The translations under genes were made by a program, and so were the position numbers. Positions 12,096 through 52,153 of a stretch of DNA of 64,000 nt are shown piece by piece; the stretch's first letter is position 1; the number at the start of each line of letters is the position of its first letter. This DNA comes from an uncultured Acidobacteriota bacterium. Its GTDB lineage: Bacteria; Acidobacteriota; Blastocatellia; RBC074. Under the pieces are notes generated by a model that was not told where the DNA came from, searched no databases, and saw only the letters and a list, made by a program, of their open reading frames with translations. The DNA lies in contig CAWCKY010000004.1 in assembly GCA_963796275.1 (NCBI GenBank), positions 1,344,001-1,408,000 on the forward strand, written 5' to 3'.

Positions 12096-12701
12096 ATGAT
12101 CCGATGTTACCATTGCGGAACCGATAACCTCGACGGTTCCGAGTATTGTGACGAGTGCGGAAAGAAGTTCACAGCTGCGTCGGCGAGAAATTTTTCAACG
12201 GTACCATCGCCCACGCAGACGGCGCCTCCACCTCCCCCCGCATTTACACGTGAATCGGTCCAACCGAAACCGGCGACCCCTTATACACCTGCGCCTCCAC
12301 CCGTTCCGGCTCCTGTCCCGCACGAAGGCCATCGGGTAGATCATCATCCTGAAGAGAATGGAGAGACGCATGTGCGCGCCCGGCTGATCATCCAGCGAGG
12401 CGGCAAGGTCGGCAAAGAATTTCCCATCCAGAGCGATGAATCGCTGATTGGACGATGGGACGCTGATGGAGGCACTTTCCCCGATGTCGACCTTGATCAA
12501 GATGACCCCGAAGCGAAAGTTTCGCGCCGGCATGCGCGGATACACTTTATGAACGAGCAATTTCTGATTGAAGACCTGGGCAGCACCAATGGGACGTTCG
12601 TTAACCGTGGCCCCCGCCTGCTGCCGGGCGACAAGCAACCGCTCAACAACGGTGATGAGATCATCGTCGGCAAAACATTTCTAAAATTTGTCCTGAGTTG
12701 A
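12096..12701 (+). CDS. Zinc-ribbon + Pro-rich linker + FHA domain protein
   Basis: N-terminal CYHCG...YCDECG; FHA motifs IGR, VSRRHA and DLGSTNGTFVN. Confidence 0.9.
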   Translation: MIRCYHCGTDNLDGSEYCDECGKKFTAASARNFSTVPSPTQTAPPPPPAFTRESVQPKPATPYTPAPPPVPAPVPHEGHRVDHHPEENGETHVRARLIIQRGGKVGKEFPIQSDESLIGRWDADGGTFPDVDLDQDDPEAKVSRRHARIHFMNEQFLIEDLGSTNGTFVNRGPRLLPGDKQPLNNGDEIIVGKTFLKFVLS

Positions 12702-12716
12702 AATCAAAGTGTTGAT

Positions 12717-14196: not shown

Positions 14197-14353
14197 GACT
14201 TGAAATTGCGAAAATGATTACCCATTCACCACAAAAGTCGCTGAGGGCAAAACAGAGCATAAAAGCAAGGAGCGGATACCGCGCGAATCTCCGCGGCATC
14301 CCCATTTTGTGTTATGTCTTGATTGTGATTTTTGCTGGTATTTCTCAAATTTG

Positions 14354-14869
14354 ATGATGTTTCAAGCGACACAAGAGAGAGGCGAATCTTCGTCCGTCCG
14401 GTCGAAAGCTCAGAGCGGAGGCAGGGGGCAGAAACCCAATTATAGTTATGTCACCCTGGCCAGCCTCGGGTTGCGGACCGGCGCGTTCCTGATCGACTAT
14501 ATTCTCACTATGTTGATATTGGCTATCCCTCTCGTGCTCGCCGTATATCTCAAGCGACGCCTGCTCGCCGTCACCGCTGCAAATATCGTTGTCACCCTTG
14601 GTTATCTCATCACGGCAGGTGCGATTTTATACAATCTGGTTTACTCATGCGCGAAGACCGGACAGAGTCTCGGTAAGAGCTTCATCGGCCTGCGCGTGGT
14701 GCGGCTCGATGGAAAGCCGATGGATTACAAGACTGCGCTTACGCGCCATCTCGTCGGCTATCCCGTCTCCGCTCTCTGCCTGGGTCTGGGAATGTTATGG
14801 ATGTTCTGGGACGGTAAACAGCAAGGCTGGCACGACAAACTGGCGAAGACGATAGTGATTAAGGACTGA
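14354..14869 (+). CDS. RDD family membrane protein
   Basis: LASLGLRTGAFLIDY, GQSLGKSFIGLRVV and QGWHDKLAKTIV plus hydrophobic helices; start taken at ATG 14354 (ORF track gives 14309). Confidence 0.9.
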   Translation: MMFQATQERGESSSVRSKAQSGGRGQKPNYSYVTLASLGLRTGAFLIDYILTMLILAIPLVLAVYLKRRLLAVTAANIVVTLGYLITAGAILYNLVYSCAKTGQSLGKSFIGLRVVRLDGKPMDYKTALTRHLVGYPVSALCLGLGMLWMFWDGKQQGWHDKLAKTIVIKD

Positions 14870-14873
14870 TCAT

Positions 14874-16661: not shown

Positions 16662-16668
16662 GCGAAAA

Positions 16669-18408
16669 GTGCCACGACTGATTGTCAGAGCTACACCATC
16701 ACACGGCGACTCCGTCGTCGAATTGTCGAGATTGCGAACAACTATTGGCCGCTCGGCGCGCAATGACCTATGCGTGGAAGACCCGTTCGCATCGCGACTC
16801 CACGCGGAGGTGCGGAGACGCGGCGACAATTTCTGGATAAGTGACCTGGGGAGCGCCAACGGCACGACGGTCAACGGAGCGCGTCTGACGAATGTCCCGG
16901 CACAACTCCACGATCGCGATATCGTTAGCATCGGTGAAACCGAGATCGAATATTCTGAACGCGCCGATACCGCCCCGGCACGTGGGCGCACGAGCATACT
17001 CTATTCCGATTCGCCCATCGCCCCCACCCCCGAAGCGACGATCTCGGCGAGTTCCCGCAATTCGGCTGCCAACCTCCTCTCCTCTCTCGAAGTCTCGCAG
17101 CGGACGCAGGTGAGGGCCGCCGGCGCAGTCCACGCCGTCCAGGATGATACGCTAGCGGTCATCAGCGATGTCAGCGTGAAGCTCCTCTCGCCTCTCTCAC
17201 TCGATGAAACTTTGAAACAGGTTCTGGAATACGTCTTCAAGGCTGTGCCCGCTGACCGCGGGTACGTTATGCTGCTCGAAACTCCAGAGAACAACGCAAA
17301 GGCCGAGCCTGAACTGGTCTGTAAGGCGATGAAGACCCGAACGGCGACCACCGAGACGGAGACCGACGTCCAGCTCAGCCGCTCGATCACCGAGCAGGTG
17401 ATAAAACAGGGCATCTCCGTGCTCACCTCTGATGCGCTGCAGGATCCGCGATTTCAGGAGCGCAGTTCGGTCATGCTCAGCGGTATCCATTCAGTAATGG
17501 CCGTGCCGCTAGCAGTCGAGAGCCGTATCTCAGGGATGATCTATGTCGACAATCCGCTGCACACCAATCGCTTCACCAAGCGCGACCTACAATTGCTGAC
17601 CTACATTGCCGGAGTCGCTGCCATCCGCATCGAAAATATGAGGTTGCTCGAAGTACAGCAGGAACAGAAGCGGCTGGCTAACGAGCTGGCCTTGGCCAGT
17701 GAGATCCAACTGCGCCTGCATCCCGAGATCCCGCCGTCGCTTCCCGGCTATGAACTGATCGGCCTAAGTTTCCCCTGCTATGAGGTGGGCGGCGATTATT
17801 ACGACTTCATCGAGCAGCGCGATGGACGCTGCGTAATCGCACTCGGCGATGTCTCCGGCAAAGGAACGGCGGCTGCTCTACTCATGTCATCAGTACACGC
17901 CGCAGTGCGAGCGCACACGAGGACGAGGCTTTCCGCCGGTGAAGTCGTCAGCGAAATCAATCTGTATATCTACGACAATACGCCGGCGAACCGCTTCGTC
18001 ACACTCTTTTACAGCGAACTCGATCCCCGCACGCACCAGTTGACCTATATCAACGCGGGCCATAATTCTCCGCTCCTCGTTCGCGCGAGCGGAGAAGTAA
18101 CGCGTCTCGACATCGGCGGATTCCCTCTGGGGATAACCGAGTTCGGCGATTATCGCGAAGGGTGGGTGGAACTCGAGATGGGAGACGTATTGGTCATATA
18201 CTCCGACGGCGCGAGCGAGAGCCTCAACGAGCAGGGCGAGGAGTTCGGCGAGGCCCGTTTGATCGATCTCGTCCAGAAGAACCGCGGCCGGACAGCCGCC
18301 GGGCTGCGTGATCGCATTGACGAAGCGCTCACCAAATTCGTCGGAAAAGCCAAGACCGTCGATGACCTAACACTCGTGATATTAAAACGAAAGAGCCAGG
18401 ATGAATGA
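16669..18408 (+). CDS. FHA-GAF-SpoIIE (PP2C/RsbU-like) Ser/Thr phosphatase
   Basis: FHA IGRS..ASRLHA..GSANGT; GAF SVMAVPL..GMIYVD; SpoIIE motifs VGGDYYD, GDVSGKG, NAGH, YSDG and DDLT. Confidence 0.93.
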   Translation: MPRLIVRATPSHGDSVVELSRLRTTIGRSARNDLCVEDPFASRLHAEVRRRGDNFWISDLGSANGTTVNGARLTNVPAQLHDRDIVSIGETEIEYSERADTAPARGRTSILYSDSPIAPTPEATISASSRNSAANLLSSLEVSQRTQVRAAGAVHAVQDDTLAVISDVSVKLLSPLSLDETLKQVLEYVFKAVPADRGYVMLLETPENNAKAEPELVCKAMKTRTATTETETDVQLSRSITEQVIKQGISVLTSDALQDPRFQERSSVMLSGIHSVMAVPLAVESRISGMIYVDNPLHTNRFTKRDLQLLTYIAGVAAIRIENMRLLEVQQEQKRLANELALASEIQLRLHPEIPPSLPGYELIGLSFPCYEVGGDYYDFIEQRDGRCVIALGDVSGKGTAAALLMSSVHAAVRAHTRTRLSAGEVVSEINLYIYDNTPANRFVTLFYSELDPRTHQLTYINAGHNSPLLVRASGEVTRLDIGGFPLGITEFGDYREGWVELEMGDVLVIYSDGASESLNEQGEEFGEARLIDLVQKNRGRTAAGLRDRIDEALTKFVGKAKTVDDLTLVILKRKSQDE

Positions 18409-19636
18409 ACTGAAACAGATCATCTTCATACCGCTCCTCTCACTTCTGCCATGCGTCTTGTGGCTGTGGTATTTCTCGAGCCGCAGTCTGTACAAGCGTC
18501 CATCGATTCGCGTCCTGGGTGTGACATTCATCCTCGGAGCGGTGGCCACGGTCCCTGCTCTCTTTCTCAACCTGGAAGGCCAGAAGTTTTTCCGCGAGCA
18601 TCTCGGCGAAAGCCAGCTCTCGCATATTCTCGTGCTTTTATTCATCGTCGGGCCGGTGGAAGAGCTGGTCAAACTTCTGGTGGTTTATCTCTACGCTTAT
18701 CGAAAGCCTCAATTCGACGAACCGCTCGATGGTGTAATCTTCAGCGCCACCGCGGCGCTGGGATTCGCTGCGGTAGAGAATGTGGTCTATCTGGGACAGC
18801 ACGATCCAATGCTCGTTCTGTTGCGCGGCCCGCTTTCGAACCCGGGTCACGCGCTCTTTTCGGCGCTCTGGGGATTGAGCCTGAGCCGTGCGAAGGCGGC
18901 GCCCAATCTGGTGCGCACGCGTTTCCCGATCATCGCCGGCGGTCTGCTGCTTGCTTCGGTGCTTCATTCTCTCTTCGATATCCTACTTATTGCATCATCG
19001 AGATGGAGCATCGTCTTTTTCGGAATACTCGTGGCGGTAATGGCAGGCCTCTTCTTCTGGGTGCGTTCTCGCATCAGATTCCATACGGAAACATCGCCGC
19101 ACCGGGAAGGGACGCTCCTGATGCCGCTCTGGCGCTATTGCCAGGAATGTGGGGCGAGGGGAACGGCTGGCATGCGCTGCACGAAATGCGGCGGCTTCAT
19201 CCCGGAGCCCGACGAATTGCAGCTCTGTCCTGTCTGTTCGACAATGCAGCGACCGGGCGCAAAATTCTGTTCGCACTGCGGAGCCAACATCAAACTACCG
19301 GTCAGGGAGAACCTGGCCACGCGCCCCCACTTCGTCTCGGTCACGCCTGAAGGGCAAGAGCGCATCGCCTACATCATCAACCATAGCGATATAATGATCG
19401 GCCGCACCTTGAATAACGGGTTCGTCATCGAACACCCATCCGTCTCCAAGCGACACGCCCGCATCGTCGTCGAAAATAACGACTACGCGCTCTACGATCT
19501 GGGAAGCAGCAACGGCACGTTCGTCAACGGAAAAAGGATTATGGAGACGAAGCTGCAGGATGGATGCGAGGTGCGGTTCGGCCGCGCACATTATGTCTAT
19601 CGATCACACAAGAGCATGGCGGAAAAAACTGCCTAA
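18401..19636 (+). CDS. PrsW-family intramembrane metalloprotease fused to double zinc ribbon and FHA
   Basis: PrsW motifs VEELVK (EExxK), GFAAVEN (FxxxE), GHALFS and HSLFD (HxxxD); four CxxC pairs; C-terminal FHA (IGR..VSKRHA..GSSNGTFVN). Overlaps the upstream gene by 8 bp. Confidence 0.88.
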   Translation: MNELKQIIFIPLLSLLPCVLWLWYFSSRSLYKRPSIRVLGVTFILGAVATVPALFLNLEGQKFFREHLGESQLSHILVLLFIVGPVEELVKLLVVYLYAYRKPQFDEPLDGVIFSATAALGFAAVENVVYLGQHDPMLVLLRGPLSNPGHALFSALWGLSLSRAKAAPNLVRTRFPIIAGGLLLASVLHSLFDILLIASSRWSIVFFGILVAVMAGLFFWVRSRIRFHTETSPHREGTLLMPLWRYCQECGARGTAGMRCTKCGGFIPEPDELQLCPVCSTMQRPGAKFCSHCGANIKLPVRENLATRPHFVSVTPEGQERIAYIINHSDIMIGRTLNNGFVIEHPSVSKRHARIVVENNDYALYDLGSSNGTFVNGKRIMETKLQDGCEVRFGRAHYVYRSHKSMAEKTA

Positions 19637-24361: not shown

Positions 24362-26917
24362 CTACCTCGATATGGATAAATCAACACCGCGGTTTCTTCT
24401 AATCAATTGATCCAATTCGTGGGCTAATTTGGAGTTTCTATTCTCCAATATCTTCTGATTCTGTACTGCCGCTGCGAGATCTCCATCCCAAAGGTACAAT
24501 AATGCCAGTTTGAACCGCTCGTACTCTTTTTCCGGATGTGTACCCAGGTTTTTCTCAACCTCCTGGATAGCCTCTTTCGCTTCCCGCAGTTCGTAAATCG
24601 AACGGGACAGATTTTCAGATGCCACAGCACAGCTCTTATCCCAGTCACTCGCGGAACAAATACTAACAGCCTTGGACAAATGCTTCTTTGCATCGCGCCA
24701 TTCCTTATTTGCGACATGAACGAGACCGATATTATAGAGTGGCCCGAAACTCTCTTTGATCAAGAGCGCCCTGTTCGATGCCATTAGGCACAAATCGTAA
24801 TTCCCCAAGCTGTAATGGGCAAAACCGAGTTGTTGCCATGCCAGGTCGAGTCGGGAGTCGGTATCGACTGATTGCTGAAGTGGTATGATCGCTTCCGCGA
24901 ATTTCCCCTCATCCACGAGACTCGCGCCCAGATTATAAAATCCTATCGCCTCGCTTGAGATATCCGTTGGATAGACAATTTTTTTCCGCGATAGCTTATC
25001 CATTGGTATTGGCTGTTCTAGTGCATTTGGTTGCGCCTCGATGCTCGGTGATATCCGCTCACGCGTGGTTACAGGCTGGTTTCGTAATCCTGGCTGCTCC
25101 GATCCCCTCAGCCGAAAATACGAGCCTATAAAAAACCCGATGAGCAGGATCAATATCACAACCCGCCGGCTGTTTTTCCTGGTCGCAACTTCCCAATCTT
25201 TCGTCGCCTGTGCGAAGGATTGCTTCTCGCTCATCAATGAAGGAAGAAGACGCTGGCGGCTGTCTTCGATCTGACTCTTGACGCGGTTCAGATAAAATGC
25301 GCCGCTGCTTAATTCGAGCTCAAGCCGATGGCGCAACTCGTCGATCTCTTTTTCAACGGAGATGCGCGCCCGGTGCGTCACGCCATCGCCATTCGCTTCG
25401 AGAGTATCGAGCCGCGATTGGCGCATTTGAGGGATCCTTTCGTATGTCTCTTTCCGGTTCTGCAGTTCAACGAACTTGTCGATAAATCGTTCATCGGTAG
25501 CCTCCTCTTTCCATTTCTTTTCCAATTCGCGAACATTTTCATCAGCCTCGCGCATGACTGTCTGAATCTTGGCGACGATCGGGCTGTGAACTTTCGAACT
25601 CTTGAATCGGAAAAATCGCCATCCCTTATTTCTGGCGATACCCGCTACCACAACCCCAGCCAGCGCCAGTGTAAAGATGGAAGCCGTCGTAACCCCGATG
25701 GCGAATCCGGCGATTACCGCGATAACTAGAGCGAGAATCATGAATTTCGATCTCTCGCGCACAGCCTTCCACCCCAGATTGGAAGGTTCCAGCAATTCAT
25801 GTGAGACCGTGCGTACCGATGGAGTTGCCGGCGGAGGGCTTATCGATGAAATCTCTTGCCAGACCTCATCGAGCTTGAAGTGCACGCGCTTCCGCGCCTT
25901 CCCGTTTAGCGGGAAATTGAAGAGCCGTATCCTCGCGCCCGTTTCAATCCCGCACCAGGGACACTCGGGTAATTCCCGGAAATAATGATGCCCGCTGTGA
26001 AGACCGCATTTCTTCAGAGAAGTCGCCAATGACTCGAGCGGCGCGATCCATTCTTGTGGTTTGGGGCGCTCGTCGGCAATCGCCGATAAAAAAGCGCGGC
26101 GGAACAGTTCCGCGATCGGCTCGGGAATCGCATCCATCGACAAGGCGCCAGGCGGCTGCTTCATATCCCTCGATCCGGAATCGGCTCCGTATGCGAACCG
26201 GTGTTCCCTGATCGCCCTCAGCAACGACATCTCTCCTTCGCCCAAATAAAGGCCCGAGAATGGATGCCTGCCAAGGAAGAGAAGTTGGAATACCGCCACC
26301 GCCAGACCAAAAGAATCGTGAGCAGGTACGCGATTGACCTCACCGAGTGCTATTCCTTGCAACTCCGGCGGAGTGTATTCGGGGAAGCCTCCCTCACATC
26401 GATAAAATTTGCGGCCGGCCGACACCTGAAAACTGTCACAGTCGAGCAGAAAAATGGTCGCTCTCCTGGTGACGAGAATATTTTTGGGATTGACGTCCCC
26501 GATGACGAAACCGTGTTCGTGGACGTTGGCGATTGCCCGCACGATGTTTGCGGCCACGTATATCAGGAACTCCCAAGAGGCTTCGGGGAACGACTGCAGC
26601 CTGCTCTTTGGACTGTGGAGGGCGTGGACTTCTTTCCCCTCGTTGATCCTCTTCATCACAAACCCGACCACATCGCCTCCGGGGCGAGCGCGCAATATAT
26701 CGACGGGCCAGGCGGAGAGTTTGATTAACCTTCCCGTTCCGAGGCGCGAAAGCGTGATGAGCTTCTCGGACTTCTCCGGCGTTATCGGTCCGTGGTAAAT
26801 CTTGGCTGCGAGATCGCATCTGCCTTGAACTTCAAAAACCGCCCCCTCGCCGCCCGCGCCTAGAGGCTCTCCAGTTCGAACGATTTCCCCATCGGAGTTG
26901 TAAAAATTCTTATTCAT
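24362..26917 (-). CDS. yegI: YegI/TerY-K-type atypical Ser/Thr kinase with TM segments and C-terminal TPR domain
   Basis: LGAGGEGAVF, AAKIY, IGDVNPKN, LLDCDSFQ, YTPPELQG and GRHPFSG; C..H.GHHY...CPWC zinc site; hydrophobic segments; TPR repeats; sits in an operon with PP2C and vWA genes. Confidence 0.85.
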   Translation of the reverse strand: MNKNFYNSDGEIVRTGEPLGAGGEGAVFEVQGRCDLAAKIYHGPITPEKSEKLITLSRLGTGRLIKLSAWPVDILRARPGGDVVGFVMKRINEGKEVHALHSPKSRLQSFPEASWEFLIYVAANIVRAIANVHEHGFVIGDVNPKNILVTRRATIFLLDCDSFQVSAGRKFYRCEGGFPEYTPPELQGIALGEVNRVPAHDSFGLAVAVFQLLFLGRHPFSGLYLGEGEMSLLRAIREHRFAYGADSGSRDMKQPPGALSMDAIPEPIAELFRRAFLSAIADERPKPQEWIAPLESLATSLKKCGLHSGHHYFRELPECPWCGIETGARIRLFNFPLNGKARKRVHFKLDEVWQEISSISPPPATPSVRTVSHELLEPSNLGWKAVRERSKFMILALVIAVIAGFAIGVTTASIFTLALAGVVVAGIARNKGWRFFRFKSSKVHSPIVAKIQTVMREADENVRELEKKWKEEATDERFIDKFVELQNRKETYERIPQMRQSRLDTLEANGDGVTHRARISVEKEIDELRHRLELELSSGAFYLNRVKSQIEDSRQRLLPSLMSEKQSFAQATKDWEVATRKNSRRVVILILLIGFFIGSYFRLRGSEQPGLRNQPVTTRERISPSIEAQPNALEQPIPMDKLSRKKIVYPTDISSEAIGFYNLGASLVDEGKFAEAIIPLQQSVDTDSRLDLAWQQLGFAHYSLGNYDLCLMASNRALLIKESFGPLYNIGLVHVANKEWRDAKKHLSKAVSICSASDWDKSCAVASENLSRSIYELREAKEAIQEVEKNLGTHPEKEYERFKLALLYLWDGDLAAAVQNQKILENRNSKLAHELDQLIRRNRGVDLSISR

Positions 26918-26944
26918 GGCTTTAGGGTTTCATGGCTTCTGTTT

Positions 26945-27700
26945 TTATCTTCTGGTCGCCAGGATCAGTGTCTTGTCATCATCCGTCCTCCCGTTGATCC
27001 TGTCAGAATTCAAATATTCGACCAGTGAATCCGAGAGCTCTCTTGAATATCCAATGCGGCGCGGCCGCAGCCAGGCGAACATCGATGCGAAGTATGGCGC
27101 ATATGCCTTCCGGGTGCGGTAGTCTAACACCAGATTTTGAATCCCATCCGTGAAAAGCGCGACCTCGTCGATACCAGAGGTATTCATCTCACAGTAAATC
27201 TTATCCGCAGCATCGTCATCGGTCAAAAAATTGGTCGAATTGGCATATTCGCCCTGTTGCGGCCAGCAAACGCAACGATATTCGTCTTCTCCGGCGGAGG
27301 CGACGATCGCGCCGTCACCGATTTGAAAATATGCCGCCTGTTCCCTTCCCACAACCGCCGCCAGCAGTGTGCAGGCGTATTCCCTGGGCGATTCGCCAGC
27401 CCATCTCGCGGCTATACTTTGAAACCTGCCGATCCAGCCGTGAATGAAATCATCGACGAGCTGTTCCCAGGTTTTTCCTCCATCAAAATGTGACTTGACA
27501 TCTGCGACCAACAGATCACAAGCCAGAATCGAGCCCAGATTGGCACGAACCGCGCTGCCAGCGCCATCCGATGCAACAGCCAGCAGAATTTCTTCTCCCT
27601 GTGGCCCGTTAAAAACCTCGGCTCGACACGAGTCCTGACAAGTCATCGCGGATTTGTTATGTGATGTACCGGCGACCGAGGCTAATCCATATTTCCACAT
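26945..27700 (-). CDS. yegK: YegK/TerY-P-type PP2C phosphatase
   Basis: ASVAGTSH..CQD, AVASDGAGSA, QIGDG, GEYANSTNFLTD, FTDG and RTDDDKTL. Confidence 0.9.
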   Translation of the reverse strand: MWKYGLASVAGTSHNKSAMTCQDSCRAEVFNGPQGEEILLAVASDGAGSAVRANLGSILACDLLVADVKSHFDGGKTWEQLVDDFIHGWIGRFQSIAARWAGESPREYACTLLAAVVGREQAAYFQIGDGAIVASAGEDEYRCVCWPQQGEYANSTNFLTDDDAADKIYCEMNTSGIDEVALFTDGIQNLVLDYRTRKAYAPYFASMFAWLRPRRIGYSRELSDSLVEYLNSDRINGRTDDDKTLILATRR

Positions 27701-27751
27701 AAACAGTTTTTAGTTTTCAGGCGCAGATACCGGAAATCCGGAGTCAAAAAC

Positions 27752-28549
27752 TCATAATGAAGCCCAGCCATCGGGTGACACAGGATTCTTGAGTTCGACG
27801 TCGTCTCCGGGACTTGAGCGTGATACGTAGGCCAGCGAAGACGAGAGCCACATAAACATCTCCCGAAAACGCATGCCGGTGAGTTTGAGCGGCTGCCGGA
27901 CTGAAATATTCCGGAGTAAGTCGAAATTAGCGCCCTCAACCCCGACGGCGAAAAAAGCGAACGCCTTTGAGTCCTCTCCTGCCCGGACAAGATCGGCCGC
28001 GCGTTCCCAATTGTCGGTCGGCTCACCATCGCTGATCAAAAAAATCCACGGCCGGTAGTAGGATATCCCGTTTTGCCGATAGGCGGCCTTTCGCTCATTC
28101 ACTATTTCAATGGCCTTTTCGATCGCGGTTCCCATCGGTGTGTCACCTTCAGCGCCTAGCGTGGGAGGGCTGAATAGATCGGGAGACTGAAATTCCGTAA
28201 TTCGCTTGACCGGGCCAAAGGTCATCAATGACAGCTCGACCCGTTTGATCGCCAGCCCATCGGTCAACAGAGCGGTCCTGAAAGCCATGAGGCCCGCGTT
28301 CAGCTCATCGATCGGCCTCACTCTTCTGATGGATATCGAATCGTTGAGTATCTTCTGGACAGGCGAGAGCGACGGCGAAACGGCCTTCACATGATTCATT
28401 GACCCCGAAGTATCCAGGAGGAGGACGCACGGACAGCGCGGCTCCGGGTTATCGACGAATTCGGGATCGGGAAACGGGACCTGGTCTTGAAATTCGTTCA
28501 CGTATAGATTACTCCCAGTAAGTAAGAGCCACAGCAAACTTTTTTTCAA
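27752..28549 (-). CDS. yegL: YegL/TerY-type vWA domain protein
   Basis: [18 protein letters not shown] (MIDAS), [32 protein letters not shown] and WLSSSL; the start could instead be GTG 28501. Confidence 0.92.
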
Positions 28550-29584: not shown

Positions 29585-32500
29585 TCAATCAGGCTGATAA
29601 TTCAGATTCGGCGCGAGCCATCGCTCGATTTCGCCTGTATCCATGCCTTTGCGGCGAGCGTAATCTTCAACCTGATCGCGCTCGATCTTGCCGAGGGCGA
29701 AGTATTTAGCTTCAGGATGTGCGAGGTAGAGGCCGCTGATAGAGCTCGCGGGAATCATTGCAAATGACTCTGTCAGTGTGATTCCGATACTATTTTCAGT
29801 ATTCAGCAAATCGAACAACAAGCGCTTCTCGGTGTGATCTGGCTGAGCCGGATAGCCCGGAGCCGGCCGTATCCCACGATATTTTTCTTTGATCAGTTCT
29901 TCGATGCTGAGGTCTTCATCGAGACCGTACCCCCATTCTTCGCGCGCCCGCTTGTGCAACAACTCGGCAAAGGCCTCGGCCAGACGGTCTGCCAGCGCCT
30001 TCGCCATAATCGAGCTGTAATCGTCGAGATCACTCTCGAACTGAGCGCAAAGTTCGGAGAGACCGAAGCCCGTCGTAAGGGCGAATCCCCCGATGTAATC
30101 GGCCCGGCCCGATGATCTGGGCGCGATGAAATCGGCGAGCGCGTGATTGAATTGCCCCTCACGCTTCTCACCCTGCTGGCGCAAGGTATGAAACGTGGTG
30201 AGGATAGTCGCGCGCGCTTCGCCGGGATAGACTTCGATGTCATCACCGAAAGCGTTGGCCGGCCAGAAGCCGTATACGGCGTGGGCCTTGAGCTCTCTTC
30301 GGTTGACGATGCGCGCGAGCAAATTCTGCGCATCTTCGTATAACTTGCGGGCCTGCGCTCCGCTGGACGGGTCATCGAGTATGCGCGGGAATATCCCTTT
30401 CAACTCCCACGCGTGAAAGAATGGCGACCAATCGATGAATGGCGTTATTTGCTCGAGCGGATAATTTTTCAGAAGCCTGACGCCCGTGAATTCAGGTTTG
30501 GCGATCTCGGTCGTCGCCCAATCAATCGGCGTCCGGTTGGCGCGCGCCTTTTCGAGCGTGAGCAATGGCCGCTGGTCCCGCCTGGCTTCATAGAGTTCCC
30601 GGTCGCGATTCTGCTCGCTGAGGTTCTTCAAAGCGAAACGGCTGCGCGTCTCGGCGTTGACCAGAGCCCCGACCACCGGAACGGCGCGTGATGCGTCGAG
30701 AACGTGAACGACGGGCGGTTCGTAGTTCGGCGCGATCTTAACAGCCGTATGCACACGGCTGGTCGTCGCGCCGCCGATCAGCAATGGAGTAGTGAAGCCC
30801 TCGCGCTGCATCTCGCGCGCGACGTGAACCATCTCGTCGAGGGATGGGGTGATGAGCCCGCTCAATCCGATGATGTCTACCTTCTCTTCGTGCGCGACTC
30901 TCAACAGCTTCTCGCAAGGTACCATCACGCCCAGGTCGATGACCTGGTAGTTGTTACATGCCAGCACGACCCCCACTATGTTTTTGCCTATGTCGTGTAC
31001 GTCGCCCTTGACGGTGGCCATCAGAATTTTGCCCTGGGCCCGTCCATTTCCATGCGCCGCCTTCTCTTCGTCCATGAAAGGTTCCAGATAAGCGACTGCC
31101 TTCTTCATGACGCGGGCGGATTTCACCACCTGCGGCAAAAACATCTTGCCCGAACCGAAGAGATCGCCGACCACATTCATTCCGTCCATCAACGGCCCTT
31201 CGATGACGGCCAGCGGTCTGCCATATTTCTGCCGTGCTTCCTCGGCATCCGCCTCGATGAAATCGGCGTTGCCCTTGACCAGCGCATGCGACAAACGTTC
31301 TTCCACCGTACCTGTGCGCCACTCCTCTTCTTTCGCTTCTACCTTGTCCTGCTTTTTGACCGTTTCGGCAAAGGCGATCAGTCTTTCAGTCGAATCCGGC
31401 CGCCGATTGAGCAGGACATCTTCGACCAGTTCAAGCAGGTTTTGGGGATCTCATCATAGACGGTGAGCTGGCCGGCGTTGACGATGCCCATGTCCATCCC
31501 GGCCTTGATCGCGTGATAGAGGAAAGCCGAATGCATCGCCTCGCGCACGGTATTGTTGCCGCGGAACGAAAACGAAATGTTGCTCACGCCTCCACTGACT
31601 TTCGCCAAAGGCAGATTTTCTTTGATCCACTTGGTCGCGCGGATGAAATCGACCGCGTAATTGTTGTGTTCATCCATCCCAGTCGCGACGGTCAGGATAT
31701 TCGGGTCGAAGATGATGTCCTGCGGCGGAAAACCTATTTCGTCGGCCAAAATGCGATAGGCGCGCCCGCATATCTCTATCCGGCGTTCTAAATTATCCGC
31801 CTGCCCCTTCTCGTCAAATGCCATCACGATGACCGCCGCGCCGTAACGGCGGATCAGACTCGCCTGCTCTCTGAATTTTTCTTCGCCTTCCTTGAGCGAG
31901 ATGGAATTGACTACGGCCTTGCCCTGCACACATCTAAGACCCGCCTCGATAACCGACCATTTGGAAGAGTCGATCACCAGCGGCACGCGGGCGATATCGG
32001 GCTCGGCGGCGATGAGGTTGAGGAATCTGACCATGGCCGCTTCCGAATCGAGCATCCCCTCATCCATGTTGACGTCGATCAGCTGGGCGCCGTTCTCGAC
32101 CTGCTGGCGCGCAACGGCCAATGCCTCTTCAAACTGGTCGTTGAGAATCAGTTTGGCAAATTTGGGCGATCCCGTGACGTTCGTGCGCTCGCCGATATTG
32201 ACGAAGTTGGTATCGGGCCGCAGCGTCAATGGCTCGTAGCCGCTCAGCCGCAGGTATGGCTCGACTTTAGCCGGCACGTGCGGGGGACAGTCTTTTACCG
32301 CCTCAGCAATCGCGCGGATATGATCGGGCGTGGTGCCGCAGCAGCCGCCGACGAAGTTGAGCCAGCCATTCTGAGCCCACTCCCGCAACTGCGGGGCCAT
32401 GGTTTCTGGCGTCTCCGGAAAACCGGTAGGCGAGAGCGGATCGGGCAGACCGGCATTGGGATATGCGCTTATGTATATGGGCGCGACCGAGGCCAGCTCT

Positions 32501-33303
32501 TCGATGAACGGGCGCATCTCTTTGGGACCGAGCGCGCAGTTGATCCCGATGCTGAAAAGCTGCATGTGCGAGACGGAATTCCAGTAAGCCTCTACCGTCT
32601 GGCCGCTGAGCGTGCGCCCGCTCGCATCGGTGATCGTAAAGGAGCACATAACCGGGACTTTTCTTCCCGTCTCACCGAAATATTGTTGAATTGCGAAGAG
32701 CGCGGCTTTCGAATTGAGCGAATCGAAGACCGTTTCCACCAGCAAAATATCGACGCCCCCGTCCATCAGCCCGCGCACCTCCTCGTAGTAGGCTCGCGCC
32801 ACCTCTTCGAATGTCACGGCGCGAAAGGCCGGGTTGTTGACATCTGGCGAGAGCGAGGTTGTGCGATTGGTAGGCCCGATCGATCCGGCGGCGAAACAGA
32901 TGCGCTCGGGATGTTCCGCTATGAATGCATCGACTGCCTGCCGGGCGATACTCGCCGCCGCAAGGTTTATCTCATAAGCCAGATGCTCCAACTTATAATC
33001 GGCGAGCGATATCGACTGCGCTGTGAAGGTATTAGTCTCGATGATATCAGCGCCGGCTTCGAGGTATTGGCGATGTATTTCAGCAACTATTCGAGGCTGC
33101 GTAAGGCAAAGCAGGTCGTAGTTGCCTTTGAGATCATGCGGCCAGTCTTTGAACCGGTCGCCGCGGTAAGCGGCTTCGTCCAGATTGTAGCGCTGAGCCA
33201 TCGTGCCCATCGCGCCGTCTATGATGACGATGCGCTGGCGGAGAAGTTGTTCGAGCCTTTTTTCGGTATTCGGATAATTGCTCACTTCAAATGATCTAAT
33301 CAC
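29585..33303 (-). CDS. metH: B12-dependent methionine synthase; -1 frameshift at ~31441
   Basis: [32 protein letters not shown] and NSISLKEG in ORF 31378..33303. [28 protein letters not shown] and RPAPGYPA in ORF 29585..31306. The frames join at [13 protein letters not shown]. Confidence 0.95.
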
Positions 33304-47707: not shown

Positions 47708-48270
47708 GTGGATGTCGCAGTAAGGCAAGCCAGTTGGATCGCCGAGCAGCTGACGGCAGAGACGAGCCCCGAGATAGCTCTGGACGGCAGCTATGGCAAT
47801 CTCAAATTCTTTCGTGGGATACGCGGCGTGAGAAGTTTTGCGACGGCCCGAATGCGAAATGATAGGGTGCTCTACCAAATCCCGCAGACACCCGCTGAAG
47901 GCGAACCGATGAAGCCTGGACGTCCACCGAAATATGGCCAGGAATTCCGCTTCGCTGACCCCCAGACTTGGCCGACACCGGATGAAGTCCTCGAGTTTGA
48001 AAACGCGCAATATGGGCGTGTCCGTCTGCAATTGTGGTCAACCTTACGATTCCGGACGAAAAAGAATGAGATTGTTGATATCCCCGCCGTTGTCCGCTCG
48101 CAGATTCATTTGGAGAGGGACCAGCCGCCCGCACCGCATTGGTACGGAGTACATAATGGGACGACAGAAGAGACCACTCTGGGTCGCGTCTTTGAGTGCA
48201 TCACGCATCGTTGGCCGATAGAGCCCGCCAACCGATTTCGCAAAGAAAGACTCTACGCCGAGCTGCCGAA
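47708..48270 (+). pseudogene. IS701-like DDE transposase internal fragment
   Basis: LDGSYGN..F, RMRNDRVLY, GRPPKYG..F..DPQTW and RWPIEPANRFRK; the N- and C-termini are missing. Confidence 0.75.
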
Positions 48271-48727
48271 TGTAGTCGGTAAAATAGGGAGTGGGAATGG
48301 AGAGTCGTGGCTTTTCTCCACTCTCCACTTCCTATTTCCCATTTTTCTGTGCCACATCTTTCTGGTCGACAAACACTTTGGATAAATTATCAGGGCAATC
48401 CGTCGGCGAGATACCCGGCGGAGGGATCGATCTCTTTCCCGCTTCCGCCTTTCTCATTCCTATCACACTAATCCCTCGGTATAGTCCGAGGGCGCTCGTT
48501 ACTGCTCGAAGCTGACAAGCGCTGATTCGCTCACTTTGTAGGCGCATCTTCCGTCGCGTCACGTTTGGCGGCTTCGGCCTTGCGTCTTTGATCCAAGCAT
48601 CGTAGCCTGAATAGGATCAACAAACTGATTAATCACTGTCGCTTTCACGCCACTTAATTCTCTCTGCCGAGATTACGCCACTGATTAGTCCCTAACACCG
48701 GGTAATTCCACTCGGAAGAATTCAAAC

Positions 48728-49087
48728 ATGGAGCACCAGCGCCTCGTGCTGAAGCGGATGCTCTATCTAGACAATAACGCAAAAGGGGAGTTTATGAAGA
48801 ACCAACCGGGAATGGCCGTGGGACCAACTGTGGTAACGGCGCAGGATGATGAATGGGGGCGTCAGAGACGCGAAGAACTACAAAAGGAGGCCGCAGACTT
48901 TGAGGCTCAACTTGCCGCACTGGAGCAGGAATACGCCCGCTCTTCCGCGATAGCCAAAATACTCGGCCGAGCCTTAGGATTCGGGGCCGCCGGCAAGCTG
49001 GAGCGGGCCCGATTCAAGGTAAGTTACAAGCGGGAGCAGTTAGCTGAATTCGAGTCCCTGCATCCCGACGCGCGCACAAAACGGTAA
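48728..49087 (+). CDS. Hypothetical coiled-coil protein
   Basis: 119 aa ORF with helical composition; alternative start ATG 48794 has a GGGGAG RBS. Confidence 0.5.
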   Translation: MEHQRLVLKRMLYLDNNAKGEFMKNQPGMAVGPTVVTAQDDEWGRQRREELQKEAADFEAQLAALEQEYARSSAIAKILGRALGFGAAGKLERARFKVSYKREQLAEFESLHPDARTKR

Positions 49088-49130
49088 TTTCGTGATTGTA
49101 AACTGAGATCGGCGACGTTATTATCGCTAC

Positions 49131-49601
49131 TCAGCCTTTATGCCCGCGGCGGGTCAATTCTTGGCGCGCGAGCCTTCTGACCTGGGAACAATCCATTATC
49201 CAAGAGGCTGCATTTGTCGCTCCGGAGAGCCAGTTCGCGCCTACCCTGCGCACATAATTCCCACTTACATCACGGAGCGATGCCGCCTCCTGTACATCTT
49301 TAGAGCCGACATTGGCCGCGACCCGAACGAGCACCTTTTCCAGCGCGCCGACGGCGGCTTTCGCGATGGCATAGTGAGAGCTACCTTCGATCAGGTTGAT
49401 CAGCGGTTTGACAGCTTGCGCGTCGCCGATATCGCCGAGCACATGCGCCGCGTCCTTCCGCGCCAGATGAGATTCGTCAACGAGCGATGCCAGCAAGGCA
49501 GCCAGCGCCCGTGGATTTCGTGATCTGCTCAACCCTTTGATGGCGCGCCGTCGCGTTTGAACGTTGCTTGACTTCAATCGTCGTAAGTTCCACCACAACA
49601 T
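49131..49601 (-). CDS. HEAT-repeat (PBS lyase-like) protein
   Basis: RRRAIKGL, RKDAAHVLGDIGDAQAVKPLINL and AAVGALEK; GGGGAG RBS. Confidence 0.8.
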   Translation of the reverse strand: MLWWNLRRLKSSNVQTRRRAIKGLSRSRNPRALAALLASLVDESHLARKDAAHVLGDIGDAQAVKPLINLIEGSSHYAIAKAAVGALEKVLVRVAANVGSKDVQEAASLRDVSGNYVRRVGANWLSGATNAASWIMDCSQVRRLARQELTRRGHKG

Positions 49602-49619
49602 AGCTCCCCTTTTTTTGGC

Positions 49620-49859
49620 TCAATCCGGTGTCGGCCAAGTTTCGCTCATCACGAGCACTCGCTTGAGTTCCTTCCCTGCGATACCAAAAAACGACGCCAT
49701 CTGTTTCAGTTGCTCTCGCCCGGTATATTCCGCCGGCGTTGAACAAAACCGCTCGATCCCGGGGGTGAAATCCACACATCTCATGCTCTTCGGCTTGTTG
49801 TGTCCTCTGGAACAATCACCATTCGCCTGCTGGAGCACACAAAATTCACACAGCTTCAT
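49620..49859 (-). CDS. Small Cys-rich hypothetical protein
   Basis: MKLCEFC...C...H...C...FC; AAGGCGG RBS-like site before ATG 49859; ends 18 bp before the HEAT gene. Confidence 0.65.
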   Translation of the reverse strand: MKLCEFCVLQQANGDCSRGHNKPKSMRCVDFTPGIERFCSTPAEYTGREQLKQMASFFGIAGKELKRVLVMSETWPTPD

Positions 49860-49917
49860 AACCGCCTTATTCCGTATTTTGATCGAGCTTAAAATCAATC
49901 ACAATTGATTCGGGAGT

Positions 49918-50112
49918 TCATAAGCCGTTGTTGACCGGGACCATCGAAATGCTCGCAATTAGCCCGATTATTCTACCCTTAGCTGATACTGTCAGAATCT
50001 CTCCATTCTTTGCTTGAAAGCGCCAACGAAACTCGAGCTTTTCGTTTTTGTTAGATTCGAACTGCGCCACCCTCGGGCGCATCGGGTAAGGCTCAGAGAT
50101 CCGCGTGATCAC
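49918..50112 (-). pseudogene. YegP/DUF1508-like small protein or fragment
   Basis: FE...EFRWRFQAKNGEILTVS resembles the DUF1508 motif; the C-terminal half looks degenerate. Confidence 0.5.
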
Positions 50113-50154
50113 TGAACGTTCACTTCCTGCGCCACTAGTTTGGACAAGAGAGAG

Positions 50155-50478
50155 TTAGTCGCTGGGTCGTCCGGCAGATAACACCCTTGAGACAGATAGT
50201 TGATTGGCCCCTTCTCGGTTGACCTCTACGCCATCATTCCCGCCGGCATCTCGATTGTCGCGCTCACTTTTCAATTCCGGGGTGGTTATGAATTCGAAAC
50301 TTATCAGCCCGCGATCGACCTCTTCGAGCGCGATGCGCGTCGCCCTCGTATTTGCAATTCGAATAAGCGGTCGTGCGCCCTTGTGAATCTGTACGGCGCG
50401 CTGGGCCGCAATCAATACCTTGAGAAACCTGTTATCACTTGTGACATTATTCATTGTATTAGTCTGTGTTGCTTTCAT
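50155..50478 (-). CDS. rpoZ: RNA polymerase omega subunit-like protein (paralog outside the usual gmk-rpoZ locus)
   Basis: DNRFLKVLIAAQRAVQIHKGARPLI...RATRIALEEVDRGLI matches the omega consensus NRY.LV..AA.RA.Q...G...KP..IAL.E...G.I. Confidence 0.78.
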   Translation of the reverse strand: MKATQTNTMNNVTSDNRFLKVLIAAQRAVQIHKGARPLIRIANTRATRIALEEVDRGLISFEFITTPELKSERDNRDAGGNDGVEVNREGANQLSVSRVLSAGRPSD

Positions 50479-50702
50479 ATCGATCAATAAACATCGTACT
50501 CGAAGCGAAGCTGGAAACCGCCGCCGGCTACGAGGCGGTGTTCTAGCCATTCGGGCCGAGCCTTGGGATGATGGATAAATACCTCGTTCCCGCGCTCAAT
50601 ATCGCTCGGTCTCCTCCCTCGACATTCGAGCTAACAAATCGAGGTAAACCCTGAATCATCGTTGGCCGATGAATTTGACATGTGCGCGCCGTCATCACAT
50701 TC

Positions 50703-50954
50703 CTAATCTCTCGGCTTAGCCTCGTCTACTTTGAGCGTTTTTCCATTAAGGCTATGACCGTTGAATTTCTCTTTGACTGCGTTAGCCGCTTCTCTAGAGT
50801 TCATTTCAACGAAACCAAAGCCCTTTGATCGTCCTGTCTCTCGGCTGGAGATCACCTGACACGATTCCACCACCCCGACGGCGCTGAACAGATCGCGGAT
50901 TTCCGTACTGGTGGTCGCCTCCGCGAGGTTACCGACAAATAATTTAACTGACAT
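50703..50954 (-). CDS. RRM-domain RNA-binding protein (Rbp type)
   Basis: RNP2 LFVGNL, RNP1 KGFGFVEM and C-terminal LKVDEAKPR. Confidence 0.95.
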   Translation of the reverse strand: MSVKLFVGNLAEATTSTEIRDLFSAVGVVESCQVISSRETGRSKGFGFVEMNSREAANAVKEKFNGHSLNGKTLKVDEAKPRD

Positions 50955-51151
50955 AAGTTATAGACCTTCTTTCTTGAATGGTTGGAGGCAGGACGAATGG
51001 TTCGTAAGAATACCTACAGAGAGGAGAGACCATCCCTAAAAACTTTCTGAAGATTTCCAACAGATATTTGGAAGGTGAGCTGTGTATTTCAGTAATCTGG
51101 AAGATTCCAGATGAACTGATGAAGAGAGTGAGCTAGGCTCAATTCTCATCC

Positions 51152-51180
51152 ACACTACGCTGGGCAGGTAGCGTTGTCAA
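51152..51180 (-). promoter_or_regulatory. Sigma70-type promoter for the RRM gene (about 190 nt leader)
   Basis: TTGACA-17 nt-TAGTGT on the minus strand. Confidence 0.5.
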
Positions 51181-51362
51181 CCTCAGGCGCCTATAAAGTT
51201 TTGCTGGAAGTCCAATCAACAAGAATCACATTACTCCAATGACAGAAACGCTGGTTCGGTCGCGCAAGCACCTAACCTTTTTGTTCGCAATTTGATAATA
51301 AGAATACCCGGAAGATTGGGTAATTTGTAGAACTAAATTTAGGGTGGAACTTAATGAAAAAG

Positions 51363-51454
<92 letters not shown>

Positions 51455-51463
51455 ACAAGCGGC

Positions 51464-51492
51464 ATTGTCATCATGCCAGCTGTCTCTGTCAA
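51464..51492 (-). promoter_or_regulatory. Putative tRNA promoter
   Basis: TTGACA-17 nt-GACAAT, 9 nt upstream of the tRNA. Confidence 0.5.
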
Positions 51493-51583
51493 GCTGTAAT
51501 TCATTCAATTTTCGACAATTTCCGATTCACTAACCGGGATATTAATTATAGGATTGCCCGCGAGCCGGAAAGGATCATCTGTG

Positions 51584-52153
51584 ATGCCGAAAGATAGGGC
51601 GGATCATGAATCTGGCGCCATCCGTCACCAGTACGAAGATTATGGTGTGAAGGGATATTACACACGATTCGGCTCGGAATACCGCAATCCTCACGAACCC
51701 ATTATCGCGGAAGTTCTACGCGCGGCGTTCGAACGATGGCAGCTCGACCTAACTCGAGTGCTCGACCTCGCCTGCGGAAGCGGCGAAGTCACGCTCGCGC
51801 TGCAGGATCTGGGCTGCACAGATATCGATGGCATCGATCCACACACAGGGGAAGCCTATCTGGCCCGAACCGGGCAGAAGGCGGAAAAATTCAGTTTCGA
51901 GCAGATAGCTGGAGGGGAGCTTGACGGGCGCAATTATAGCCTCGTCGTGTGCAGCTTCGGCCTCCACTTAATAGATGTTTCATGGCTGCCGTCGTTACTC
52001 GCCCGGCTCAGCTCCATCTCAAACCGTTTGCTCGTGGTTACGCCGCACAAACGGCCTGCGATCAAAACCGAATGGGGATGGACGTTCGAGGACGAACTGG
52101 TGATCGAAAGAGTGCGCGCCCGCATATACACAGTTTGGTTTCCCGGTAATTAG
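51584..52153 (+). CDS. Class I SAM-dependent methyltransferase
   Basis: VLDLACGSGE, GIDP and YSLVVCSFGLH; AAGGA RBS. Confidence 0.85.
   Translation: MPKDRADHESGAIRHQYEDYGVKGYYTRFGSEYRNPHEPIIAEVLRAAFERWQLDLTRVLDLACGSGEVTLALQDLGCTDIDGIDPHTGEAYLARTGQKAEKFSFEQIAGGELDGRNYSLVVCSFGLHLIDVSWLPSLLARLSSISNRLLVVTPHKRPAIKTEWGWTFEDELVIERVRARIYTVWFPGN

Follow-up and report, generated by a model that had tools for sequence, protein, structure and literature searches.

Organization of the locus

The stretch of DNA analysed here, which we call the window, comprises 64,000 nucleotides (nt) from an uncultured Acidobacteriota bacterium (Blastocatellia; RBC074; assembly GCA_963796275.1, contig CAWCKY010000004.1, positions 1,344,001-1,408,000), and window coordinates count its first letter as position 1. 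Between positions 49,131 and 51,180 it holds five small co-directional open reading frames (ORFs), all on the minus strand (50703-50954, 50155-50550, 49918-50112, 49620-49898 and 49131-49601). An earlier reading made from the letters alone (hereafter the sequence-only reading) had picked out these five ORFs, correctly as to their presence and direction. It had taken them for an RNA recognition motif (RRM) protein, a paralogue of the RNA polymerase subunit omega, a YegP-like protein, a Cys-rich protein and a HEAT-repeat protein, together forming an accessory module that remodels RNA polymerase and RNA handling under stress. Four of the ORFs, those for the RRM, omega, Cys-rich and HEAT proteins, are intact genes, and the YegP-like ORF is a DUF1508 pseudogene. 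Comparison with related loci gives partial support to a real and previously undescribed neighbourhood with a transcription and RNA theme, which is loose and co-regulated rather than a fixed operon.

The RRM, omega, Cys-rich and HEAT genes, and a small gene convergent with them, are under purifying selection, with ratios of nonsynonymous to synonymous substitution (dN/dS) of 0.15-0.41 against relatives. The features of the locus are collected in Table 1, in which two gene starts differ from those of the listed ORFs. Alignment with homologues places the start of the Cys-rich gene at 49859. The listed omega ORF has 131 codons, and alignment with 13 homologues of about 100 amino acids (aa) moved its start to the 33rd codon (50454; alignment A1, mean column identity 81%). 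With this revision the gap after the RRM gene, previously given as 225 base pairs (bp), becomes 248 nt. The Cys-rich and HEAT genes do lie 18 bp apart, as had been claimed, and this gap holds a GGGGAG Shine-Dalgarno sequence. Because the spacers are short, omega, the dead DUF1508 copy, the Cys-rich gene and the HEAT gene probably form one transcription unit that ends at a stem-loop after HEAT. The stem-loop folds at -14.9 kcal/mol (z = -2.46; 6 of 200 shuffled sequences fold equally well), overlaps the HEAT stop codon and reaches into the 43-nt spacer before the convergent gene.

Table 1. Features in and around the five-ORF region of the window
Feature	Position	Strand	Basis or remark
tRNA-Ser(GCT)	51362-51454	-	ARAGORN; Rfam tRNA, 59.6 bits; separate unit upstream of the RRM promoter
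Type-2 element (promoter and start of leader)	51092-51182	-	hexamers, 15-sequence alignment, nhmmer
RRM 5' leader, ~190 nt	50955-51145	-	transcription start inferred from the -10
RRM protein gene, 83 aa	50703-50954	-	PF00076
RRM-omega spacer, 248 nt	50455-50702	-	deletion junction and 27-nt element
Omega (rpoZ-type) gene, 99 aa	50155-50454	-	PF01192
DUF1508 (YegP-family) pseudogene	~49900-50070	-	tblastn; lesions against L003 and L023
Cys-rich protein gene, 79 aa	49620-49859	-	homologue alignment
HEAT-repeat protein gene, 156 aa	49131-49601	-	PF13646
Stem-loop, then UUU	49100-49137	-	folding; candidate end of transcription unit
Convergent gene, 97 aa, likely ATG 48794, with type-3 element upstream	48601-49087	+	conservation in relatives
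IS701-family transposase fragment	47708-48385	+	DDE_5, NF041680; bounds the neighbourhood on the far side

The Cys-rich protein family

The invariant residues of the Cys-rich family are C4, C7, P23, C28 and F31; C16 is conserved to at least 90%, and C39 to a lesser degree. The histidine of the CxxC..C..H..C..C motif that had been read from the window is not conserved. The protein has no match in Pfam or NCBIfam at E<=0.1 and none in the Protein Data Bank (PDB) at E<=10. When 34 members were compared with Pfam at E<=10, nothing consistent emerged, and the only match to recur, zf-MYST, was found for 2 of the 34. In the ESM Atlas the nearest clusters score 0.92-0.94; none has a Pfam family, and where taxa are recorded these are Acidobacteriota. 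A homologue search returned 135 of 135 candidates, with "hypothetical protein" as every source name given, and a profile search against 1.84 billion representatives yielded 66 proteins at E<=1e-3. As far as such comparisons reach, the Cys-rich protein represents an uncharacterised family that is so far restricted to Acidobacteriota.

AlphaFold models of the protein are of low confidence, with a mean pLDDT of 62.0 when built from 20 sequences and 53.3 when built from 34, and the only structure predicted in both runs is a pair of C-terminal helices. A metal-binding N-terminal part followed by these two helices is the probable architecture. Conservation extends over the full length, the C-terminal helices included (dN/dS 0.17-0.26).

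We scanned one genome per GTDB species with the Cys-rich alignment, which gave 139 pattern matches and 49 confirmed loci (designated by L-numbers), all of them in Blastocatellia or Acidobacteriota metagenome-assembled genomes (MAGs). The closest relatives of the window are L001-L003, with 84-85% identity in the Cys-rich protein. Ten loci have titles of the Heliobacteriaceae type (among them L004, L013, L016, L019, L024, L025, L032, L033 and L036) and nest inside Acidobacteriota clades. Since both their Cys-rich genes and their neighbourhoods do so, these Heliomicrobium- or Heliobacteriaceae-titled records look like mislabelled bins.

Four to five conserved cysteines in 79 residues would also suit a protein that is a substrate or partner of nearby radical S-adenosylmethionine (radical-SAM) enzymes, either as a modified peptide or protein or as an Fe-S carrier, with its link to transcription incidental. 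We consider this highly improbable. Two enzyme families come into question. The first, f19, has a weak best NCBIfam similarity to radical SAM/SPASM proteins, namely to PapB-type ranthipeptide maturases and far below the cut-off (35.7 vs 340 bits); in 10 of the 49 loci it shares the strand of the Cys-rich gene and is no more than 3 kb away, but in the mapped loci an RRM gene with its own promoter and leader sits between it and the Cys-rich gene. The second, the B12-binding radical-SAM enzyme f16, is found within 3 kb in 9 of the 49, yet most loci, and the window itself by tblastn, lack a homologue of such enzymes. Full-length conservation at a dN/dS of about 0.2 is also unlike the pattern of leader plus variable core that a precursor peptide would have.

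Genes that accompany the Cys-rich gene

In other species the Cys-rich gene stands beside varying sets of genes for RRM, omega, CarD/CdnL, f6, translation initiation factor IF-1, GroEL, DUF1508 and HEAT proteins. We counted gene families within 3 kb of the Cys-rich gene, both in all loci and in a subset of 28 loci with full flanks, that is, at least 3 kb on either side (Table 2); pairs of the Cys-rich gene with RRM, HEAT, omega or DUF1508 recur beyond chance expectation, although the counts are not independent, since a single class supplies all loci. In 27 of the 49 loci at least one of omega and CarD lies within this distance (a union taken by hand). The CarD/CdnL assignment is based on PF02559 (RID) and PF21095 (CarD_C), both above their cut-offs.

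Table 2. Gene families within 3 kb of the Cys-rich gene
Family	All loci	Loci with full flanks
RRM	35/49	19/28
f6	25/49	12/28
HEAT	16/49 (one, L011, broken by a stop)	10/28
Omega	15/49	9/28
CarD/CdnL	15/49	
DUF1508	14/49	9/28
GroEL	10/49	5/28
IF-1	7/49	3/28

RRM, omega, DUF1508 and HEAT genes are all within 3 kb of the Cys-rich gene in none of the 49 loci, and two loci, both short-flanked, have none of the four nearby. Closest to the five-gene set are L002 and L003; the latter has omega-DUF1508-Cys-HEAT-f6, and its left flank ends too soon for RRM to be judged. Most often the genes are arranged as RRM > Cys > HEAT > f6, with a divergent operon upstream that consists of a 92-aa unknown gene, carD, DUF1508 and f10. 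Omega, where it lies within about 2 kb of the Cys-rich gene, takes one of three arrangements: with both genes on one strand, it is upstream in 7 loci and downstream in 4, and in another 4 it is downstream on the other strand. On a tree of the Cys-rich protein (75 columns, midpoint root only, many open forks), orders with a linked omega are placed in the deepest clade and the basal grade, and RRM > Cys > HEAT > f6 is found in derived clades.

The sequence-only reading had proposed a neighbourhood search across Acidobacteriota MAGs for RRM, an omega paralogue and the Cys-rich and HEAT genes. The five-gene set did not appear as a unit in any of the 49 loci, and in the window it arose by deletions, as described below. 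What endures of the proposed transcription/RNA module is the persistent linkage of the Cys-rich gene to polymerase-associated or RNA-binding genes, together with a shared upstream element (the type-2 element below); the fixed five-gene operon does not.

Derivation of the gene order in the window

Between window positions 50570 and 50537, L002 carries 2143 nt that include the CarD/CdnL and GroEL genes, and L001 carries 1285 nt. Between 49121 and 49114, L001 and L003 carry about 420 nt encoding f6. In the window itself, tblastn at E<=0.01 found no homologue of f6, carD, groEL, infA, f10, f16, f19 or f22. By this comparison the window order is derived, through deletions of carD with groEL and of f6. 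Nucleotide homology to L001-L003 is interrupted at several points, and the adjacency of RRM and omega is a deletion scar: against L001 and L002 the break falls at about 50537-50570, within the 248-nt spacer. Other members have been lost in the same clade: L001 lacks DUF1508 and most of HEAT, and L002 lacks HEAT and also DUF1508. RRM, omega and the Cys-rich gene are intact in every relative whose fetched stretch permits the check, the RRM region of L003 lying beyond the end of its contig.

By the criterion of the sequence-only reading itself, a terminator in the RRM-omega spacer would separate the units. A scan of the spacer found no canonical terminator. A modest GC hairpin followed by UUU at about 50517-50540 folds at -23.7 kcal/mol (z = -1.35) in the window and at -33.3 kcal/mol (z = -3.67) in L002, and is not kept in L001 or L003. 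We rejected it as a conserved terminator upstream of omega, as it is strong in L002 only. Before omega lies a 27-nt element (50503-50529, minus strand) that the window shares with L001-L003 in all but its first base, which differs in the window; the flanks vary, and the element forms a strong hairpin only in L002.

The YegP-like ORF, which had been presented as a functional member of the cluster, scores 16.4 bits, below the Pfam cut-off of 22. Its tblastn alignment to intact DUF1508 covers only residues 1-32 of 71, after which the homologous reading resumes in another frame. Compared with L003 and L023 it shows an altered start (ATG>GTG), a frameshift through a 1-nt deletion, and a stop (TAC>TAG). 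The intact copies of related loci encode 65-79 aa (one ORF is longer only by an upstream start), and that of L011 matches PF07411 at E=1.5e-14. Judged from these lesions, the window copy is a pseudogene. Elsewhere in the window, at 12717-14196 on the plus strand, a Ser/Thr kinase is divided over two overlapping ORFs (Pkinase positions 1-69 and 74-257). Either the kinase gene is truly frameshifted or the assembly is wrong at this point, and some frameshifts in this sequence may therefore be assembly errors. The presence of three separate lesions in one small gene argues for real decay of DUF1508.

The omega subunit

The omega protein matches RNA_pol_Rpb6 (PF01192) with 41.7 bits against a cut-off of 26. 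It falls short of the NCBIfam rpoZ equivalog TIGR00690 (21.5 bits vs 23.6), and other omega or K models in NCBIfam lie far below their cut-offs. Homologues were accepted for 259 of 283 candidates at E<=1e-3; they come from Blastocatellia or Chloracidobacterium MAGs, and those with a source name are called omega. A 40-aa C-terminal tail is conserved only in the subclade of the window. Omega evolves faster than its neighbours (dN/dS 0.32-0.41). It looks like the ordinary rpoZ of the cell rather than a demonstrated paralogue, and the earlier description of it as a paralogue is unproven. For a second, canonical rpoZ in the rest of the genome we estimate a probability of roughly one in four.

The status of omega bears on the sequence-only reading in its full form, in which the five genes are a dedicated stress operon. 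RNA polymerase would be remodelled by an omega paralogue acting with the YegP-like, Cys-rich and HEAT proteins, and a housekeeping rpoZ would be encoded elsewhere. In favour of it is L045, where two omega-like genes lie within 7 kb. The omega next to the Cys-rich gene there is 69-76% identical to the Cys-adjacent omegas of L042, L046 and L047 and belongs to the Cys-linked lineage; Cys-adjacent omegas follow the Cys clades. The other copy has rpsU, infA and an Hfq-related gene nearby, and its identity to the omegas of the set does not exceed 55%. In contrast, the 64-kb window holds a single omega-like ORF, as does each of 14 loci. The missed rpoZ cut-off and the faster evolution of the window omega would also suit a paralogue, but its homologues are highly conserved and, where named by their sources, called omega. 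In other bacteria gmk or coaBC often flanks rpoZ, and neither was found around omega in L028 or L010, which fits a paralogue as well. As to the operon as such, its five-gene order is unique to the window (0 of 49 loci) and was made by deletions, its YegP-like gene is a pseudogene, and its first two genes are separated by 248 nt of deletion scar. We regard a dedicated stress operon as quite improbable and prefer an ordinary omega in a loosely organised neighbourhood.

The surroundings of the two omega-like genes of L045 span 10 kb (L045:2200-12060). They include an Hfq-related gene, rpsU (S21), infA, one omega-like paralogue, a CI-type helix-turn-helix gene and a gene for a CPXCG zinc protein; after these come a coiled-coil gene, groEL, DUF1508, the Cys-rich gene, a radical-SAM gene and the second omega. 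A Crp-like ORF, identified by eye, also lies in this stretch.

The HEAT protein and f6

The HEAT protein matches HEAT_2 (PF13646) at E=1.1e-16, with 61.3 bits against a cut-off of 27.7, and PF03130 with 26.8 against 20.9. Its C-terminal region of about 55 aa is conserved (alignment A5) and belongs to no known family; the best score in the ESM Atlas, 0.75, gave no lead. Of 803 candidates 75 reach E<=1e-3, which marks a narrow family, and dN/dS against L003 is 0.29. In 14 loci the Cys and HEAT matches share a strand, and the second begins no more than about 65 nt after the first ends.

Members of the f6 family (L003:1934-2287 and 24 other loci) are about 118 aa long. They start with a C4 zinc ribbon, and their C-terminal half, for which there is no Pfam or NCBIfam match, is highly conserved. 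The best PDB profile match of this half, which is weak, is the C-terminal region of UvrD (4c2t_A 678-725, E=0.014), and it also matches an isolated UvrD C-terminal domain (7egt_B, E=1.6).

The RRM gene, its leader and shared upstream elements

The RRM protein contains an RRM_1 domain (PF00076, E=1.3e-22, 79.8 bits vs a cut-off of 20.7) over residues 5-75 of 83, and scores 83.7 bits with the NCBIfam model NF058537 (Rbp_regulator), below its cut-off of 100. It is 89-90% identical to its counterparts in L001 and L002, with a dN/dS of 0.15-0.20 against relatives. There are several RRM paralogues per genome.

The promoter proposed earlier for this gene can be read as stated, with a -35 hexamer TTGACA at 51180-51175, a 17-nt spacer and a -10-like TAGTGT at 51157-51152. 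The -35 (TTGAC) and the core of the leader are invariant in 15 of 15 aligned sequences, from the window and 14 other loci. A consensus promoter scan omitted this promoter because its -10 fits only 3 of 6 positions; the scan listed 4 sites in the region compared with 2.5 +/- 1.6 in shuffled sequences, and is therefore uninformative. The leader is about 190 nt long, as that reading had it. It folds at -49.3 kcal/mol (z = -2.37; 1 of 200 shuffles equals this), and is kept in L001 and L002 and in part in L023. An Rfam scan of window positions 48500-51700 at E<=1 found the tRNA and only two sub-threshold matches, one to a plastid 3'-UTR family on the opposite strand over the tRNA (45.5 bits vs 68) and one to mir-488; the RRM leader has no Rfam family.

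The RRM promoter and the first ~60 nt of the leader make up an element of about 95 nt, which we call type 2. After the -10 it has two small hairpins that flank a CU-rich stretch. An nhmmer profile gave 30 hits in 25 sources, among them the single window copy (51182-51092, E=4.9e-26). The next gene 3' of the element is an RRM gene in 4 cases, a family of the carD operon in 12, omega in 2 and the Cys-rich gene in 1 (L039); in the rest it is the radical-SAM gene f16 (2), f10 (1) or unassigned (8). In L010, where omega and the Cys-rich gene form a compact omega > Cys pair, the element lies 91 nt before omega. Its occurrence before RRM, carD, omega-Cys and Cys units suggests, at the level of sequence, shared regulation.

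Two further kinds of element were found. The type-1 leader, of about 200 nt, directly precedes another (second) RRM paralogue in 29 of the 49 loci (for example, L011:9265-9470), and the window has no copy. In its alignment 97% of cells are paired, compared with 34-43% when partners are slid, and 7 pairs have compensatory changes, as many as were seen in 1 of 500 shuffles. Rfam scans of L011, L008 and L001 gave no match, the type-1 leader included, and this leader is a candidate for a new cis-regulatory RNA of RRM genes. The type-3 element, which holds two copies of a direct repeat of about 12 nt, lies at 48601-48699 on the plus strand of the window. It precedes the convergent gene in the window, L001 and L003, and also RRM genes in four more distant loci (L042, L045, L046 and L047). 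By eye, a short CU-rich stretch is common to all three types.

The type-2 element also enters into an alternative that we regard as rather unlikely, though it carries appreciable weight: synteny inherited without shared function. On this view the small genes are unrelated housekeeping or orphan genes, kept close together only by the descent of all sampled genomes from a single ancestor with this order, and type 2 is a strong promoter type reused in the lineage. Against this, conservation of the element runs about 60 nt beyond the -10 into the transcribed part, with E values down to 1e-28 before different genes. On the other hand, no covariation backs an RNA role for it. The hairpin stems never vary among the aligned copies, and covariation therefore speaks neither for nor against an RNA structure. 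Inherited synteny would also explain why every locus is from Blastocatellia or Acidobacteriota, why the exact five-gene set recurs in 0 of 49 loci and why members have been lost repeatedly in the clade of the window, and the Pfam, NCBIfam and Atlas scans gave no functional annotation that ties the Cys-rich or HEAT protein to transcription. Yet the gene order has been reshuffled many times while omega, RRM, CarD or f6 remained within 3 kb of the Cys-rich gene, and the neighbours are strongly enriched for proteins that bind RNA polymerase or RNA. If the linkage is inherited synteny only, nothing more is left than a routine annotation of rpoZ, an rbp gene, a pseudogene and two genes for hypothetical proteins.

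Surroundings of the locus

Upstream of the RRM promoter, the tRNA-Ser(GCT) gene is flanked by a promoter-like site (51492-51464) and a terminator-like site (51322-51305). On the other side, the 97-aa product of the convergent gene is coiled-coil-like and is kept in L001, L003 and L045 (dN/dS 0.28-0.37 against L001-L003). It matches no family above a curated cut-off, and its only Pfam matches are marginal (E >=0.02). Synteny with L001 and L003 stops at about 48579, where the truncated IS701 transposase lies; the fragment matches DDE_5 at E=6e-10 and aligns with NF041680 only over profile positions 155-345 of 439. Beyond the convergent gene, in the place of the IS701 fragment of the window, L001 and L002 have a small basic-protein gene and the second RRM paralogue, and the L003 stretch shows neither.

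Farther away, signalling genes cluster in two stretches. The plus strand at 12096-19636 encodes four FHA-domain ORFs, including the split kinase described above, a GAF-SpoIIE phosphatase and a PrsW protease, together with RDD and TPR proteins. The minus strand encodes a kinase-TPR protein, a PP2C phosphatase and a VWA protein at 24362-28549, and at 29585-33303 the domains of methionine synthase spread over two adjacent ORFs, one with the B12-binding and activation domains and the other with the homocysteine S-methyltransferase and pterin-binding domains. The latter division could be a natural split or a frameshift.

A proposed role in transcription and RNA metabolism

The window contains a locally trimmed copy of a small-gene neighbourhood, recognised in all 49 loci and centred on the 79-aa Cys-rich protein, and we give about even odds to the following explanation of it. 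The neighbourhood would be a set of accessory factors for transcription and RNA, loosely organised and co-regulated, in which omega would be the ordinary rpoZ product of the cell. The Cys-rich protein may bind metal through C4, C7, C16 and C28 and may work at the polymerase or close to it, probably in company with the HEAT protein and, in genomes that have it, the Tudor-like f6. Translation of the Cys-rich and HEAT genes, 18 nt apart, would be coupled. By analogy with Bacteroides, the RRM protein would be an RNA chaperone, and its long leader, together with the CU-rich stretch common to the leaders, could allow feedback control. The stress role claimed in the sequence-only reading is an analogy with cold-induced bacterial RRM proteins only, and the claimed remodelling of RNA polymerase likewise goes no further than analogy; neither is supported.

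A bolder form of this proposal, which we think unlikely, is that the Cys-rich, HEAT and f6 proteins are new, Blastocatellia-specific polymerase accessory factors, genetically coupled to omega and CarD, with a regulon defined by the type-2 element and a CU-rich part read by RRM proteins. If so, RRM proteins and polymerase binders, and not Csp proteins, would make up a cold-shock-like circuit in this lineage.

Several observations weigh against a functional neighbourhood centred on the Cys-rich protein. This protein has no detectable relative of known function by Pfam, NCBIfam, PDB, Atlas or profile search, and its structure models are of low confidence. The likeness of f6 to the UvrD Tudor domain is, as sequence comparison goes, weak, and the window has no f6. 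The type-2 element could be a DNA site rather than an RNA element. The housekeeping status of omega is unproven, given that gmk and coaBC were absent from the two loci inspected and that one genome has two omega-like genes. None of the 49 loci has the complete set, and the neighbourhood is eroding in the clade of the window: carD, groEL and f6 are deleted and DUF1508 is broken in the window, and HEAT and DUF1508 are lost in L001 and L002, which argues for several members being dispensable. Lastly, as all 49 loci belong to one class, much of the co-occurrence reflects shared descent and is not independent evidence.

Acidobacteria rank with the most abundant bacteria of soils, and experiments have characterised little of how they regulate their genes. 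For the orphan Cys-rich family and its two partners, HEAT and f6, the only functional clue is their persistent linkage to omega, CarD and RRM genes, and the long leaders, though conserved, stand outside Rfam. The neighbourhood thus supplies candidate RNA polymerase accessory factors, and candidate RRM-based post-transcriptional control, for Acidobacteriota. Among the matches listed in the open-access literature, no paper links the RRM, omega, CarD or Cys-rich family of Acidobacteria/Blastocatellia, and the neighbourhood, the Cys-rich family and the leaders are undescribed in them.

Comparison with known systems

RbpA, the WhiB-like (Wbl) proteins and CarD/CdnL are small RNA-polymerase-binding factors of Actinobacteria and myxobacteria. 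Like RbpA and the Wbl proteins, the Cys-rich protein has about 80 aa and conserved cysteines, and could hold Zn or an Fe-S cluster. Its family differs in having no sequence similarity to any Pfam family, and the likeness is one of analogy only. A true CarD/CdnL gene occurs in the same neighbourhood in 15 of 49 loci, and has been deleted from the window. The window omega resembles rpoZ products in its Rpb6/omega domain, which is above the Pfam cut-off, and in the name that sources give to its homologues. It differs in its linkage to the orphan gene for the Cys-rich protein, a linkage seen in 15 of 49 loci.

The C-terminal Tudor domain of PcrA/UvrD is described as an RNA polymerase interaction domain (PMC5397179, PMC8318588, 10.1101/2020.07.06.189035). 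In f6, an N-terminal C4 zinc ribbon takes the place of the helicase. DUF1508, the family of Escherichia coli YegP, is described in a preprint as present in stress-induced genes and as forming dimers (10.1101/2024.11.21.623966). Intact copies of other loci match this family, whereas the window copy is a pseudogene, and in most loci DUF1508 lies on the opposite strand within the carD operon, not beside the Cys-rich gene.

The closest known counterparts of the window RRM protein are single-domain RRM proteins, namely the cyanobacterial Rbp proteins and RbpA, RbpB and RbpC of Bacteroides (RRM-1 proteins). The latter, like the window protein, are small (~80 aa) with a single RRM_1 domain. The RRM-1 proteins are described as cold-induced and self-repressing, with 5' untranslated regions of 122-155 nt (PMC13370968), and RbpB has been termed a global RNA-binding protein (PMC11697453). 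Both leaders are long, about 190 nt for the window gene compared with 122-155 nt in Bacteroides thetaiotaomicron, and the window leader and its relatives resemble no Rfam family. The window leader differs from the Bacteroides case in that its start is found elsewhere at the head of carD or omega units.

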